Shown here piece by piece: positions 43,653-49,818 of a stretch of DNA of 64,000 nt; positions within the stretch are counted from its first letter, which is position 1; every line of letters begins with the position of its first letter. The notes beneath the pieces are model-generated. The model saw only the letters and a program-made list of their open reading frames with translations. It had not been told where the DNA came from and made no database searches. The position numbers and the translations under genes were made by a program. Source of the DNA: an uncultured Gemmatimonadales bacterium. GTDB taxonomy: Bacteria > Gemmatimonadota > Gemmatimonadetes > Gemmatimonadales > GWC2-71-9. The stretch spans positions 256,001 to 320,000 of the forward strand of contig CAWCFX010000003.1 of the NCBI GenBank assembly GCA_963795085.1, read 5' to 3'.

Positions 43653-45383
43653 TCAGTCCACGATCTCCAAATCTAACTCATCGGCGGCGGCATCGAGGGC
43701 CGGATCCTTCTTCCGCAGCGTCTTAAGCCGCTCCGCCCTGGCCCCGGCATCCGACATCCGCTTTGGCCGGGGTGCGGAATCCTCGGGTAATGGAGTAGCC
43801 GAACCCACCTGGAAGGTGACCGGGGCCGCGACGAAGCGGACCAGGATTGCCTCCACGATACCGCGCTGCCGATTGAGCCGCTCGGCGATCAGGGGATTGG
43901 GGTCCAGCAACTCCACCGTGAGCCTGGGAGGAGCCGCCTCGATCGGTCGGCTGGCGCCCAGGGCCTCGCCCAGGAAGGGACTTTCCTTGCGGGCCTCCGC
44001 CACCACAGCGCCCCACGCCTCCTCCAGGGCGGACACGGTGAACGGCACCGGGTCGGCCGACAAACCCGGTCCCGGGGGCGGGGGCAGGGGAACCGCCTCC
44101 GGCGCCTCGGTGGGCACCGGCGGGGTGGGCGCGGGCTCCCGGGTCGCTCGGGGCTCGGGCCGGGCAGATGGCGCGGGAAGGATGGGCCGGCGGGGCGCGT
44201 TCGGTTCCCCGCCGGTATTCCGAGCGGGCGGAGTGGCCCCATCCCCCAGCTGGGCCAGGACCCGTTCCAGGTCCACGACCTGATCCATCAATGTCCAGCG
44301 AAGCAGGAGCGTCTCAACCATCAACCGCGGGTTCGCGCTGCGCCGGATCCCCTGCTCCTGGTCGGCCAGCAGCTTGAGCATCCGCAGGACATCGCCGGCG
44401 GCCAGCCGGGTGCGATAGTGGTCCAGCTGCTGGCGCATGGCTTCGGTGAGACCCTCCGGGTCCGAGCCCAGCTGGAGCATCAACAGCGACCGCAGCATCT
44501 CGGCGGCCCCGTTCATGAACTCGCCCAGGTCGGCGCCACCCTGGGTCAGCCGCTCGACCAGCGGGAAGACCGCCTCGGGGCGGCGCTCGGCGACCATCGC
44601 CAGGACTTCGCCGTAGAGTTCGTCGTCCACCAGGCTGAGAATGGACCGGACGCTTTTCACGGTCAGCTCGCCGTCGCCGAAGCTGAGACACTGGTCGAGC
44701 ACCGAGAGGGCATCCCGCATCCCGCCATCGGCGCCCCGGGCAATGAGGGTCAGCGCATCGTCCTCCGCCCGGATTCCCTCTGCCCGGGCCACCTCCCGGA
44801 GGCGCTCGCGAATGGCGGCCGGCCCGATCCGGCGGAAATCGAAGCGCTGCAGCCGCGACATCACCGGGGCCGCCGCCTGCGCAATCTTCTGCGGCTCGGT
44901 GGTGGCGAAGACAAACACCACGCCGGGCGGCGGCTCTTCCAGGATCTTGAGAAGGGCGTTCCACGCCTCCCGGGTGAGCATGTGGGCCTCGTCCACGATG
45001 TACACCTTGTAGTGGCCGGGCTGGGACGCCGCGTACATCGCCCGCTCGCGCAGTTCCCGGGCATCGTCCACCCCCCGGTTGCTGGCGGCGTCAATCTCCA
45101 CCACGTCCAGGTTGGCGGACCCGGCCCAGATCCGGGCACAGTTGACGCACTCGCCACAAGGCTCGCCGGGCGGATCCATCTCCTCTTTCCGCTCGCAGTT
45201 CAGGGCCATGGCCAGGATCCGCGCCGCGGTGGTCTTCCCCACCCCGCGAGGGCCGGTCAGCAGGTATCCGTGCCCCACCCGGTTTCGGGCGATGGCACCG
45301 CGGAGCACGTTGGCCACGTGGTCCTGCACGATGAGATCGGAAAATTTCCGGGGACGGTACTTCCGGGCGAGCGCGATTGCCAT
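43653..45383 (-). CDS. dnaX: DNA polymerase III subunit gamma/tau
   Basis: LARKYRP, GPRGVGKTT, EIDAASNRG, IVDEAHML, NALLKILEEP. Confidence 0.97.
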   Translation of the reverse strand: MAIALARKYRPRKFSDLIVQDHVANVLRGAIARNRVGHGYLLTGPRGVGKTTAARILAMALNCERKEEMDPPGEPCGECVNCARIWAGSANLDVVEIDAASNRGVDDARELRERAMYAASQPGHYKVYIVDEAHMLTREAWNALLKILEEPPPGVVFVFATTEPQKIAQAAAPVMSRLQRFDFRRIGPAAIRERLREVARAEGIRAEDDALTLIARGADGGMRDALSVLDQCLSFGDGELTVKSVRSILSLVDDELYGEVLAMVAERRPEAVFPLVERLTQGGADLGEFMNGAAEMLRSLLMLQLGSDPEGLTEAMRQQLDHYRTRLAAGDVLRMLKLLADQEQGIRRSANPRLMVETLLLRWTLMDQVVDLERVLAQLGDGATPPARNTGGEPNAPRRPILPAPSARPEPRATREPAPTPPVPTEAPEAVPLPPPPGPGLSADPVPFTVSALEEAWGAVVAEARKESPFLGEALGASRPIEAAPPRLTVELLDPNPLIAERLNRQRGIVEAILVRFVAAPVTFQVGSATPLPEDSAPRPKRMSDAGARAERLKTLRKKDPALDAAADELDLEIVD

Positions 45384-45544: not shown

Positions 45545-47230
45545 ATGAGCATCTCTCTCAAGGCGGCCCACCTCAAGCGATACCGGGACATCGCCCGGTT
45601 GTTCATCAAGTACGGGCGTTCCGACCTGGTCGCGTCGGCGGGCATGAATGGCGACCTGGTGCCGCCGGTCCCGCAGGACGTCCCGGTGCCGGCCGCCGAG
45701 GAACTGGCGACCGACCTGGAGAAAATGGGGCCCACGTTCATCAAGCTGGGCCAGCTGCTGTCCAGCCGGGGGGAGATTCTGCCGCCGGCCTACCTTACCG
45801 CCCTGGAGCGGCTGCAGGACGACGTGGAACCCTTTCCCTTCTCCGACGTGGAGAAGATCGTCACCGAGGAACTGGGCGCCCGGCTGTCCAAGGCCTTTTC
45901 ATTCTTCGATTCAACCCCGCTGGCCGCCGCCTCCCTGGGCCAGGTGCACCGGGCGGCGCTCCGGGACGGCCGGGCGGTGGTAGTCAAGGTCCAGCGCCCC
46001 GGCATCCGGGAGCGGGTGGTCGAGGACCTCGACGCCTTTGACGAGATCACCACGCTGCTGCTCAAGCATACCAGCCTGGGAGAGCGCTACGACCTCGCCG
46101 GGATCATGGACCAGTTCCGCAAGTCGCTGCTCACCGAACTGGATTACCGGCGGGAGGCGGCCAACCTGCTCCGGCTGGGACAGAACCTCCGGTCATTCGA
46201 GCAGATCGTTGTCCCGGCCGCGGTGGATGACTACACCACGACCAGGATCCTCACCATGGACTACGTGAGCGGCAAGAAGATCACCGCGCTGAGTCCTCTG
46301 ACCCTGATCGAGGTGGACGGCGAGGAACTGGCGGAGAGCCTCTTCCGGGCCTACCTCAAGCAGATCTTCGTGGACGGGTTTTTTCATGCCGACCCTCATC
46401 CGGGCAACGTCTTCCTGACCGAGGACTACCGGATCGCGCTGCTGGACCTCGGCATGGTCGCCACCATTCCGCCCCGGATGCAGGAACACCTGCTCCAGAT
46501 GGTGCTGGCGATCGCGGAGGGACGCAGCGACGAAACCGCCGACTTCGTGCTCAAACTGGGCGAGACGACCGAGCACCTGGACGAGCGGGAGTTCCGGCGC
46601 CGGGTGGCGGAGCTGGTCAGCGCCAGCCATGGCGCCAGCATCGGGGAACTCAAGGTGGGCCGCATATTCCTCGAGATGTCCCACTATTCGGCCGAGACCG
46701 GGGTGCGGCTCCCGCCGGAACTGACCTTGCTCGGCAAGGCGCTCCTCAACCTGGATGGCATCGGCCGCACCCTGGCTCCGGAGTTCGACCCCAATGCGTC
46801 CATCCGGAGAAACTCGGCCCGGCTGATGAACCAGCGGATGATCAAGAGCCTGTCGCCGGGCAGCATTTTCAGCAACGTGATCGAAATGAAGGAAATGGTG
46901 GACCGCCTGCCGGGACGGGTGAACAAGATCCTGGACCACGCGGCCAACAATCAGCTGGGGCTCAAGATCGACACGGGAATCGACTCAGCCCAGTTCATGG
47001 TCGGGCTGCAGAAGGTGGCCAACCGGATCACCATCGGCTTGATCCTGGCGGCGCTGATCGTCGGGGCGGCGTTGCTGATGCGGATCGAGACGAGCTTCAG
47101 GATTTTCGGCTATCCGGGGCTGGCCATGCTGTGTTTTCTCGGGGCGGCCGGCATCGGGCTGGCCCTGTTGCTGCATATCGTGTGGCAGGACGTGTCGGAG
47201 AGCGAAAGCAGGAAAGGACGGAGACAATGA
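45545..47230 (+). CDS. ABC1/UbiB (AarF) family kinase
   Basis: GPTFIKLGQ, AAASLGQVH, VKVQRP, FFHADPHPGN, LDLGM; C-terminal TMs. Confidence 0.93.
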   Translation: MSISLKAAHLKRYRDIARLFIKYGRSDLVASAGMNGDLVPPVPQDVPVPAAEELATDLEKMGPTFIKLGQLLSSRGEILPPAYLTALERLQDDVEPFPFSDVEKIVTEELGARLSKAFSFFDSTPLAAASLGQVHRAALRDGRAVVVKVQRPGIRERVVEDLDAFDEITTLLLKHTSLGERYDLAGIMDQFRKSLLTELDYRREAANLLRLGQNLRSFEQIVVPAAVDDYTTTRILTMDYVSGKKITALSPLTLIEVDGEELAESLFRAYLKQIFVDGFFHADPHPGNVFLTEDYRIALLDLGMVATIPPRMQEHLLQMVLAIAEGRSDETADFVLKLGETTEHLDEREFRRRVAELVSASHGASIGELKVGRIFLEMSHYSAETGVRLPPELTLLGKALLNLDGIGRTLAPEFDPNASIRRNSARLMNQRMIKSLSPGSIFSNVIEMKEMVDRLPGRVNKILDHAANNQLGLKIDTGIDSAQFMVGLQKVANRITIGLILAALIVGAALLMRIETSFRIFGYPGLAMLCFLGAAGIGLALLLHIVWQDVSESESRKGRRQ

Positions 47231-47237
47231 AGGAAGA

Positions 47238-47337
47238 GTGCCCCAGGCACCCCGAAGCGACACCAGACATCGCTTAGCGCTGCTACCGGCAAGGTCCTGA
47301 CGCGATTCGCGCGCCAGCGCCCTTCGGACCTGGGGCG
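47238..47337 (-). ncRNA. ffs: Signal recognition particle RNA (4.5S, small bacterial SRP)
   Basis: The minus strand reads GCCCCAGG...GAAUCGCGUCAGGACC-UUGCC-GGUAGCAGCGCUAAGCG...CCUGGGGC, i.e. the helix-8 CAGG/AGCAG symmetric loop in a ~100-nt hairpin. TACTTT -10 at 47343-48; near dnaX. Confidence 0.88.
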
Positions 47338-47412
47338 AGGGAAAAGTAACGGCCCAGGGGGCGATCGGCCAGTGGTCCCCAGCGGGTTAGTGCCCCACAC
47401 CCCTCAATTCGC

Positions 47413-49818
47413 TCAATCCGCCACCTGCTCGAACCGCAGATTGAGCACCGGGTACTCCCGCCACCCGTCAAAGTCGAAGTGCCACCACTCTTCCGCATAC
47501 ACGGTAAAGCCCTGGGCCTCCATCGCGGTACGCAGCAGCTCTCGATGCCAGCGCTGCCGTGCGGTGCCCCCGGGGTACCCCGGCAGGCTGCGGGGGGTGG
47601 CCTCGTCGTAGGTTCCCACCATTTCCACCGGCGCGCCAGTCTCGAGGTCGTAAAGGGTCAGGTCCACGGCCGCGCCCCGGTTGTGCCGCGATCCGTTGGC
47701 CGGATCAGCCACCAGCCAGCGGAGGGAATCGGGGGTGGCATCCCAGAACACGCGGGTGACGTACCAGGGCCGGTAGGCATCGTGAATCAGCAGGCCGTAG
47801 CCCTGGTCCCGGAGCCAGCGGTGGGCCCGGAGCAGGGCTTCCCCGGCCGGCCGCTGAAGTAATGCGCGCGCAGCGGAGTAGAACGTGGTGCCCAGGAAGT
47901 TGTTGGTCGTGGCGTATCTGATGTCGAACCGGATGGTCGCGTCCAGGGTGGCGAGGTCCACCAGGTCCGGCGCCCGAAGACCGCCGGGCTGGACCGGCGG
48001 AGTGGCGGCCAGCGCCTCCTGCAACAACATGGGCACCGGACGAACCGGGGTGACCTGGAGTTGCCCGTTCGCTTCGGGGCCGACCGACCGGCGGGGAAAC
48101 TCGATGCCATTCAGGCTGACCGATATTCCCCTGCCCTCCGCGTCCCGGCGAACCACGAGGCGCTCCCCGGCGTATAAGCCGCGGGGTGGCAATCGGAAGA
48201 CCGAATCGGACAGCTCCTCGAGCGGGAAGGCGAAAAACCACTCGATCAGCACCCGGAGTCGCCCGAGGTCCTCGTAGAGGTAAAGGACGTTGTGGTCCCA
48301 CCCGTATTCACCGATGAGTCCCGCCCAGCGGGCGGGGACCTCGGGAGGAAACGGGGGGGGCGCCCTGGTGAAGAATTGCTCTCCGAACGCGATGGAGCTG
48401 TCGGTGAGCGGCGAAAAGGCGTTACCGAACTCCCGGACATCGTCCACCACGAGGTCGGGACCGGAGGCGCGCAGCGCGACCGCCACTCCGCCCGCCGGGA
48501 CCAGGGCCAGGCCATCGGGCCGCTCCAGCAACTCGAAACGCCGCTGGCCGTGGAAATAGTGGCCTCGCATGGCACGGGCGCGCCCGGGCGGAATCGGCTC
48601 GGTCTGCAGCGGTTCGGGAAGCGGACCCCCGGCCCGCTCCGCCCGCATGGCGCGCAGCGCGAACGCGCCGAGGCGCTCCAGCACCTGGTTGGAGAACTCG
48701 AGATTGGCAATGACCACGACGCCGAGTTTTTCCGCGGTCAGGCCGTGCAGCTCAGTGGAGAAGCCGTAAACCGCCCCGCCGTGGCTCACGTGCGGGCTGC
48801 CTTCGAAAGGGCTCACCCCGAACCCCAGTCCAAAAAAGGAGCCGGCCTCGAACTGGGGCCGCCACATCTGCTCCAGTGCGGCCGAGTCCACCAGCGGGGT
48901 ATCCGCCACGGTCCCCCGGCGAAACAGGAAGCTGAGGAAGCGGGCCAGGTCCACGGCGGTGGAACGCAGGCCCGCCGCAGGCTCGATTCCCCACTCGAAG
49001 TCAGGCGCCCCGAAGCGGCGTCCGTCCACCGTCCACATCGTGCCGGCAGCCGCCTCGCCCGGCAGGACCGGGGGCCCGAAGGCCGACCGGCTCATCCCGA
49101 TCGGCCCGAGGAGGCGTTGGGCCATGACCCGGTCAAACGGGGCCCCGGCGGCCACCTCGAGCACCCGCCCGGCGACGGCGTAACCGGCGTTGGAGTACTT
49201 GACGGTGCTCTCCGGAGGAAACACCAGGGTGGTGCCGTTGAGACTGGCCACGGTCGCGGCGAGCGTCGCGGGCGCCGGGGTGAAGTAGTTGCCCACCGGG
49301 GGTTCGTGCACCAGGCCGGAGCGATGCGCCAGCAGTTGCCGCAATGTTACCGGGCGCGACCCAGGGTTTCCGGGGTTGAAGCCAGGGAGATAGTCCGTAA
49401 CTGGCCGGTCGAGGCCCAGCCCGCCCGTTCCCACCTCCTGCATGACACCGAGCGCGGTAAACAACTTGGAGACGGACCCTACCCGGTAGATGGTCTGGGC
49501 GGTCGCGGGAAGGCTGTCGGCCGGGCGGGCGGTCCCGAAACCGCGCGCCCACACAATCCGCTGGTCCTCCACCAGGGCGATGGAGAGACCGGGGATCGCC
49601 TTGTCGGCCATTTCATGGACGATGAACCGGGTGACCGCCGCCGCAGTCTGGGAGTAGGACGGGGCCGCCGGGATGGAATCCTGGCCGCCCGCCGGCCCGG
49701 CGCTTGCCAGCAGGATGGACACCAGGGCGAAACACCGGCGGCGGCGGGGGCCGCACGGCGCCCTGTGATGGCCGCCACACACCGGGCGCGCCCATCCGGG
49801 GTAGGTTGGGATCATCAT
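47413..49818 (-). CDS. Serine hydrolase (beta-lactamase/PBP family) fused to an M15 D-Ala-D-Ala dipeptidase (VanX-like)
   Basis: SVSK, YSN, HGG motifs; C-terminal DAYRP, SRHNRGAAVD, EEWWHFD. Start uncertain. Confidence 0.9.
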   Translation of the reverse strand: MMIPTYPGWARPVCGGHHRAPCGPRRRRCFALVSILLASAGPAGGQDSIPAAPSYSQTAAAVTRFIVHEMADKAIPGLSIALVEDQRIVWARGFGTARPADSLPATAQTIYRVGSVSKLFTALGVMQEVGTGGLGLDRPVTDYLPGFNPGNPGSRPVTLRQLLAHRSGLVHEPPVGNYFTPAPATLAATVASLNGTTLVFPPESTVKYSNAGYAVAGRVLEVAAGAPFDRVMAQRLLGPIGMSRSAFGPPVLPGEAAAGTMWTVDGRRFGAPDFEWGIEPAAGLRSTAVDLARFLSFLFRRGTVADTPLVDSAALEQMWRPQFEAGSFFGLGFGVSPFEGSPHVSHGGAVYGFSTELHGLTAEKLGVVVIANLEFSNQVLERLGAFALRAMRAERAGGPLPEPLQTEPIPPGRARAMRGHYFHGQRRFELLERPDGLALVPAGGVAVALRASGPDLVVDDVREFGNAFSPLTDSSIAFGEQFFTRAPPPFPPEVPARWAGLIGEYGWDHNVLYLYEDLGRLRVLIEWFFAFPLEELSDSVFRLPPRGLYAGERLVVRRDAEGRGISVSLNGIEFPRRSVGPEANGQLQVTPVRPVPMLLQEALAATPPVQPGGLRAPDLVDLATLDATIRFDIRYATTNNFLGTTFYSAARALLQRPAGEALLRAHRWLRDQGYGLLIHDAYRPWYVTRVFWDATPDSLRWLVADPANGSRHNRGAAVDLTLYDLETGAPVEMVGTYDEATPRSLPGYPGGTARQRWHRELLRTAMEAQGFTVYAEEWWHFDFDGWREYPVLNLRFEQVAD

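Follow-up and report, generated by a model that had tools for sequence, protein, structure and literature searches.

In E. coli, Lys399 of FtsY and the apical loop of the SRP RNA act as a tether, which speeds up assembly of the SRP with its receptor at least ~100-fold (PMC4091067). Exceptions to the GNRA loop are already accepted within the SRP RNA family, and URRC is a widespread alternative (PMC4091067). Docking of Lys399 and the URRC exceptions were the background given in the initial annotation of the locus described here, and both are in print in that source. Larger loops have been described as well. Plastid SRP RNAs have apical loops that vary from 1 to 11 bases and follow no clear rule, higher-plant chloroplasts have no SRP RNA, and the chloroplast FtsY of higher plants and prasinophytes carries an uncharged residue at the Lys399 equivalent (PMC4091067). 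In the phylum Gemmatimonadota, Gemmatimonas aurantiaca with its CCGAA loop has been listed among the cases of a ‘bigger apical loop’ (PMC4091067, after Rosenblad et al. 2009). Among the solved structures surveyed for other RNAs, GNRA-like pentaloops are common and can accommodate the extra base at four different positions; UMAC loops mimic GNRA, and phage boxB pentaloops of the pattern G-N-R-(N)-A push one base out and so retain the GNRA fold (PMC12550061).

The locus studied here lies in a stretch of 64,000 nucleotides (64 kb), called the window below, which is positions 256001-320000 of contig 3 in a genome of 3.89 Mb and 6 contigs that is 93.4% complete. A search with Infernal matched the model of the bacterial small SRP RNA (4.5S type, RF00169) to 47336..47237 on the minus strand, a gene (ffs) of ~100 nt, with 43.2 bits (gathering score 40). 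The alignment is full-length (model 1-97 of 97, not truncated), the match has E = 5.8e-06 in the 64 kb window and E = 8.5e-8 in the genome, and it is the sole Rfam match within the window. The initial annotation had called an SRP RNA and proposed this search, and the match over the full model bears the identification out. It had placed the gene at 47238-47337, which is one base off the limits found here, and had not named the minus strand; its loop position was correct.

Helix 8 on the minus strand reads GUCAGG-ACC-UUGCC-GGU-AGCAGC. The two sequences of the symmetric loop region that flank the hairpin and bind the Ffh M domain, GUCAGG (5' half, 47296..47301) and AGCAGC (3' half, 47279..47284), are both present. 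Between them, ACC (47293..47295) pairs with GGU (47285..47287) to form the apical stem, which encloses the pentaloop UUGCC at 47288..47292, exactly where the initial annotation had seen it replace the GNRA loop. The loop and both halves of the symmetric region were located by direct reading and with Infernal. There are 11 bases between the symmetric-loop halves, compared with 10 in the canonical RNA, and in the RF00169 alignment the loop has 5 bases where the model has 4.

The window's RNA shares many features with the RF00169 4.5S RNAs, including a full-length match over the cut-off, the GUCAGG and AGCAGC sequences, covarying helices, a single gene copy and a genome that encodes Ffh and FtsY. 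It departs from the RF00169 norm in its five-base apical loop, and its score is only 3 bits over the cut-off. UUGCC, with 5 bases, is not a GNRA tetraloop. Like the URRC loops it has U first and C last, but it exceeds them by one base and has U-G-C (Y-G-C) at its centre, where URRC has R-R. Gemmatimonas aurantiaca is similar in phylum, loop position and loop length; its CCGAA loop belongs to a class that begins with C and ends with A (C..A), whereas UUGCC belongs to a U..C class. The boxB pentaloops are matched by some relatives of the window organism, whose GUGAA, GCGAA and GUGCA loops fit G-N-R-(N)-A. UUGCC has neither the first G nor the last A and therefore lies outside that pattern; in addition, its partner would be FtsY and not the N peptide. 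Finally, as in the plastid SRP RNAs with enlarged loops, an atypical loop of more than 4 bases sits on an otherwise recognisable SRP RNA. Unlike the FtsY of higher-plant and prasinophyte chloroplasts, all 16 Gemmatimonadota FtsY proteins compared keep the lysine, and the pentaloops follow a strict rule, as described below.

Collecting the loops of relatives, another check that the initial annotation had proposed, revealed how widespread the pentaloop is. Within the same order, RF00169 matched 35 of 40 relatives (36 of 41 including the window's genome). Thirty loci were retrieved; in 29 of them GUCAGG and AGCAG are separated by 11 bases, and the thirtieth has a GAAA tetraloop. Within the genus, UUGCC and UCGCC are found in two genomes each. 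Across a sample of 151 genomes of the class Gemmatimonadetes, RF00169 matched 143 at E <= 0.01 and 116 over the cut-off, so that 35 lack a match over the Rfam cut-off. Many SRP RNAs of the class thus score near or below the cut-off, and automated annotation will skip some of them. The suggestion of the initial annotation that standard annotation may miss such genes holds only in part; the window's own copy passes.

Hairpins were tabulated for 129 (115 + 14) of ~170 class genomes with a match; three genomes flagged as unpublished (G152, G056 and G060) and ~50 further matching genomes, mostly of families f7 and f8, stand outside this table. The loop has five bases in 107 of the 129 genomes and four in the other 22. 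The window's own family, f1, has the pentaloop in 46 of 50 genomes, and its tetraloops are GGAA once, UAAC twice and UAGC once, the latter two being of the URRC type. In f2 it is found in 13 of 15 genomes, with GAAA in the other two. All tabulated members of f3 (7/7), f4 (4/4), f7 (15/15), f8 (21/21) and f9 (1/1) have a pentaloop and no tetraloops. Family f5 (0/15) and the single f10 genome (0/1) have no pentaloop, and their loop is GGAA throughout. UUGCC itself is present in 11 of the 129 genomes, eight in f1 and three in f7. The pentaloop is the usual state in the class and not the peculiarity of one genome that the initial annotation had taken it for.

Three families from other classes of the phylum (f11, f12 and f13) have 10-base hairpins. 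The loop is GGAA in 11 of 11 genomes of f11, while f12, from a sister class, has the URRC-type loops UGAC twice and UGGC once. All three genomes of f13 (L283, L284, L285) have UCUUGAUCGA, a 10-base hairpin tip with only two Watson-Crick pairs, which can alternatively be read as a UGAU (URRU-like) loop closed by a U-C mismatch; their helix 8 loop is neither GNRA nor URRC. In family f6, none of the five genomes (G043, G124, G150, G167 and G173, 91-97% complete) gave an RF00169 match at E <= 0.01. Either their SRP RNA is more divergent, or weak matches were lost to the strict filters used for large batches. By parsimony, the tetraloop is probably ancestral in the phylum, the pentaloop would have arisen inside the class, and a few lineages would have reverted.

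We also scanned named prokaryotes, one genome per species, for the pattern GUCAGG-NCC-NNNNN-GGN-AGCAGC, which gave at least 120 matches. Among the 120 matches listed, 76 carry titles of the Gemmatimonadota lineage (Gemmatimonad-, Longimicrobi- or Palauibacter, the last of which we take to be a member of the phylum). The commonest loops among the 120 listed are CCGAA (22), CCGCA (21), UCGCC (17), GUGAA (9) and UUGCC (7). The loop reported for Gemmatimonas aurantiaca is therefore common, here as in the class. Of the other 44 listed matches, 38 were run against Rfam (all except L160, L163, L169, L172, L191 and L192). Thirty-three of the 38 have no Rfam match and were rejected as chance occurrences in unrelated DNA. 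The remaining five (L143, L153, L131, L168 and L179) are SRP RNAs. L143, from a Bacteroidetes-labelled MAG, has an 11-base helix 8 hairpin, UCC-CGGAA-GGA, and scores 57 bits. L168, from a Chthonomonas-labelled MAG, and L179 both read ACC-CCGCA-GGA with an outer A-A mismatch, at 35.3 and 27.3 bits. Given these three 11-base hairpins outside Gemmatimonadota, the SRP pentaloop may have more than one origin. L131 (a ‘Pseudomonas sp.’ MAG) and L153 (an ‘uncultured bacterium’ MAG) have flanks of the Gemmatimonadota type and a CCGCA loop, and probably reflect binning contamination or loose labelling. Among the matches listed, the pentaloop is almost confined to Gemmatimonadota, and the window organism is accordingly placed in that phylum.

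The locus was also compared with public sequencing data. The best public run shared 0.29 of the sampled words of 46900-47700, and contigs from four public runs were compared with 47100-47500. Two contigs from RNA libraries match the gene, X16 over 47239-47325 with 0 differences and X18 over 47237-47336 with 2 differences. The DNA contig X2 matches 47268-47336 with 4 differences; a second DNA contig, X1, is exact over 47314-47464 and ends short of the loop. The three contigs that cover UUGCC (X16, X18 and X2) have no gap at the loop. X16 and X18 cease to match at the predicted ends of ffs, with unlike sequence beyond. As their flanks differ from the window, these contigs probably come from close relatives. 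The ffs sequence is present in the RNA libraries of two studies; co-present DNA is a possible source, and the contigs do not prove transcription.

These data bear on the first alternative, that the fifth base was introduced by an indel in assembly or sequencing and the true RNA has a tetraloop, which the initial annotation had named as a refutation of its reading. The window was apparently assembled from an uncultured organism, and long-read assemblies do contain single-base indels. Against an indel, the three public contigs cross the loop without a gap, the 11-base hairpin recurs in most of the tabulated class genomes, and ACC-UUGCC-GGU itself exists unchanged in independent genomes (the 11 of the class and 7 among the 120 matches listed). 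The last observation already refutes the indel explanation, whose probability we regard as practically nil.

The second refutation named by the initial annotation was a canonical ffs elsewhere in the genome, with the present locus being a decayed or unexpressed extra copy. A second ffs was not found: RF00169 at E <= 1 gave one match only in the whole 93.4%-complete genome, and the large-SRP model RF01854 returned the same locus alone, as a partial match of 39.1 bits against a cut-off of 60. The genome also encodes both protein partners, Ffh (TIGR00959, 554.9 bits, cut-off 473.2) and FtsY (TIGR00064, 312.9 bits, cut-off 260.7). An Rfam score barely above the cut-off would fit a decaying copy, and a second ffs could lie in the ~7% of the genome that is missing. 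However, the relatives score similarly with one copy each, compensatory changes are found in all helices, and the RNA-library contigs match the gene. We conclude that the locus is the single genuine SRP RNA gene of this genome, and rate the extra-copy explanation as very improbable, though a shade less so than an indel.

The gene stands between two protein-coding genes. On the other strand and convergent with ffs is an ABC1/UbiB-type kinase gene (45545-47230, plus strand). Upstream lies an 801-residue ORF (47413-49818, minus strand) in which a beta-lactamase-fold domain (PF00144, residues 63-382) is joined to a Peptidase_M15 domain (PF01427, D-Ala-D-Ala dipeptidase, residues 618-783); it is unusual for a single protein to combine these two domains, both of which process cell-wall peptides. 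In bacteria ffs and dnaX are frequently adjacent. Here dnaX (43653-45383, minus strand) is a neighbour on the same strand; ffs lies 1.85 kb upstream of it, with the convergent kinase gene between them. A scan of 47100-47500 for sigma-70 promoters found none, and the only terminator-like match in that interval is inside the 3' end of ffs.

The structure of the hairpin was assessed with an alignment of 111 distinct relative sequences folded by RNAalifold. The minimum free energy structure of the lone ffs sequence is more stable than its shuffles (z = -3.12), yet it is unlike the SRP fold; it was set aside for this reason, and the covariance model and the alignment were used instead. RNAalifold predicted an apical stem of 3 pairs enclosing 5 loop columns. 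The outer stem pair is A-U in 81 sequences, G-C in 16 and C-G in 14, with 0 broken, and both inner pairs are C-G in 110 and U-G in 1. This covariation of the outer pair without a single broken pair proves the apical stem, and five columns are left for the loop. Over the whole RNA, 14 of the 19 predicted pairs show compensatory changes, that is, two-sided changes that keep the pair. In the 5' half of the symmetric region, the CAG within GUCAGG is invariant in all 111 sequences, and the bases on either side are at least 90% conserved, if not invariant. In the AGCAGC columns, A54, G55, C56, A57 and C59 never vary, and conservation of G58 is at least 90%. In several class members the normally invariant CAGG reads CAGA (L221 of G121; L296-L298 of G026, G030 and G038; L239 of G166). 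The changed position is presumably one that the Ffh M domain contacts in model systems.

The sequence of the pentaloop follows a clear rule, counted on the 93 pentaloops of the first 115 tabulated genomes. Nine loop sequences occur: GUGAA (25), CCGCA (23), UCGCC (15), UUGCC and CCGAA (10 each), GUGCA and GCGAA (4 each), and UCGCA and CCGCC (1 each). They conform to N1-Y2-G3-M4-M5. All 93 have a G at position 3, a C or U at position 2 and an A or C at position 4, and none has A at position 1; kinship among the genomes inflates these conservation counts, which overstate independence. The two end bases are linked. The combinations are G..A in 33, C..A in 33, U..C in 25, U..A in 1 and C..C in 1 of the 93. 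The 33 G..A loops (GUGAA, GCGAA and GUGCA) are those that fit G-N-R-(N)-A. The G..A, C..A and U..C classes are each present in both f1 and f7. The recurrence of the same few end-base combinations from one family to another speaks for selection and against drift.

Inspection of the Lys399 equivalent in FtsY was a further check proposed with the initial annotation, which had suggested compensatory changes in the protein partners. The FtsY of the window organism, whose N-terminal extension before the NG domain is short, is 41% identical to E. coli K-12 FtsY over that domain, and Lys399 aligns to a Lys. We extended the comparison to 16 proteins, from the window organism and 15 class genomes, divided equally between pentaloop lineages (UUGCC twice, CCGCA three times, CCGAA once and GUGAA twice) and tetraloop lineages (GGAA five times, GAAA twice and UAAC once). 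All 16 have Lys at the Lys399 equivalent, in both loop groups, and the alignment of the 16 contains no column that divides pentaloop from tetraloop lineages. As for the residues of the FtsY RNA-binding patch named in PMC6059433, all 16 proteins retain Trp343 and have an aromatic residue 365, and a basic residue 406 is present in every pentaloop lineage (8 of 8) and in 6 of 8 tetraloop lineages. The comparison, which covered FtsY, revealed no compensatory change among the 16 sequences, and the proposal is not supported for the receptor.

It could be that the loop has lost its tethering role in the class, with SRP-FtsY assembly independent of the loop and the loop sequence drifting. The variety of loops (nine pentaloop sequences as well as GGAA, GAAA, UAAC and UAGC within one class) could be taken this way, as could the fact that the U..C and C..A classes are not GNRA, and the enlarged loops of chloroplast SRP RNAs offer a precedent for a change of function (PMC4091067). 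However, drift would not hold G3 in every pentaloop, together with Y2, M4 and three end pairs in 91 of 93. The lysine is kept in all 16 FtsY proteins and the nearby RNA-patch residues are largely kept, whereas the lineages of the chloroplast precedent lost the lysine (PMC4091067). A lost tether therefore appears distinctly improbable. The tight sequence constraint on the loop likewise leaves nothing in favour of the RNA-independent assembly that the initial annotation had raised.

Taken together, our preferred explanation is that the locus is the sole functional ffs of its genome and carries the pentaloop typical of its class, which would act as a tetraloop mimic in tethering FtsY. We assign this reading a probability of about 0.75. 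We hold the gene identity and the clade-wide nature of the trait with high confidence; for the GNRA- or URRC-like fold and the FtsY tether, which we propose from sequence comparison, the odds are somewhat better than even. In the proposed mechanism, an SRP RNA of ordinary 4.5S architecture binds the Ffh M domain. The pentaloop would fold in a GNRA-like manner, with one extra base looped out or stacked, and the U..C class to which the window's loop belongs may fold like a URRC tetraloop with one extra base. This class parallels the URRC tetraloops of the window's own family and of a sister class, and UUGCC could accordingly be read as U-Y-G-(C)-C, URRC-like plus one base. Such a loop would still provide a transient tether to the conserved FtsY lysine, and assembly of the SRP with its receptor and targeting would then proceed as in E. 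coli.

The tether could also be kept with another fold, in which a non-canonical N1-N5 pair closes the loop and the Y-G-M triloop is the functional element. The tight linkage of first and last bases favours this arrangement, and the central three loop bases are the most constrained; the linked ends would fit a non-canonical closing pair around a 3-base loop equally well. Arguing the other way, GNRA and URRC loops of sister lineages (GGAA in f5, f10 and f11; UGAC and UGGC in f12; UAAC and UAGC in f1) have exactly these ends, G..A and U..C, which points to continuity of the fold, and GNRA-like pentaloops are common in published surveys (PMC12550061). We therefore regard the triloop as unlikely, though clearly less so than loss of the tether. 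A further reading goes beyond a tetraloop mimic. The N-Y-G-M-M pentaloop may be a distinct, selected docking module, a new family of GNRA mimics with three interchangeable end classes, an invariant G and an extra base that would contact FtsY or Ffh. If so, the specificity or the kinetics of the tether would be altered relative to tetraloop SRPs. This is a tentative idea, to which we give about the same low weight as to the triloop.

The pentaloop of one species, Gemmatimonas aurantiaca with CCGAA, is already in print. In the literature covered, which did not extend to subscription papers, we found no description of a class-wide loop rule beyond that one species in PMC4091067. What is new here is the UUGCC variant, the breadth of the trait (107/129), the N-Y-G-M-M rule with its linked ends, and the unchanged FtsY.

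The tetraloop of the SRP RNA has been treated as near-universal, and it makes assembly ~100-fold faster (PMC4091067). Most of one bacterial class has instead a rule-bound five-base loop and has kept the receptor lysine. Together, the loops form a natural series that begins with GGAA and URRC tetraloops and continues with pentaloops of the G..A, C..A and U..C classes, in some cases inside one family. The series lets one ask what the tether needs, whether charge and shape or the strict GNRA fold.
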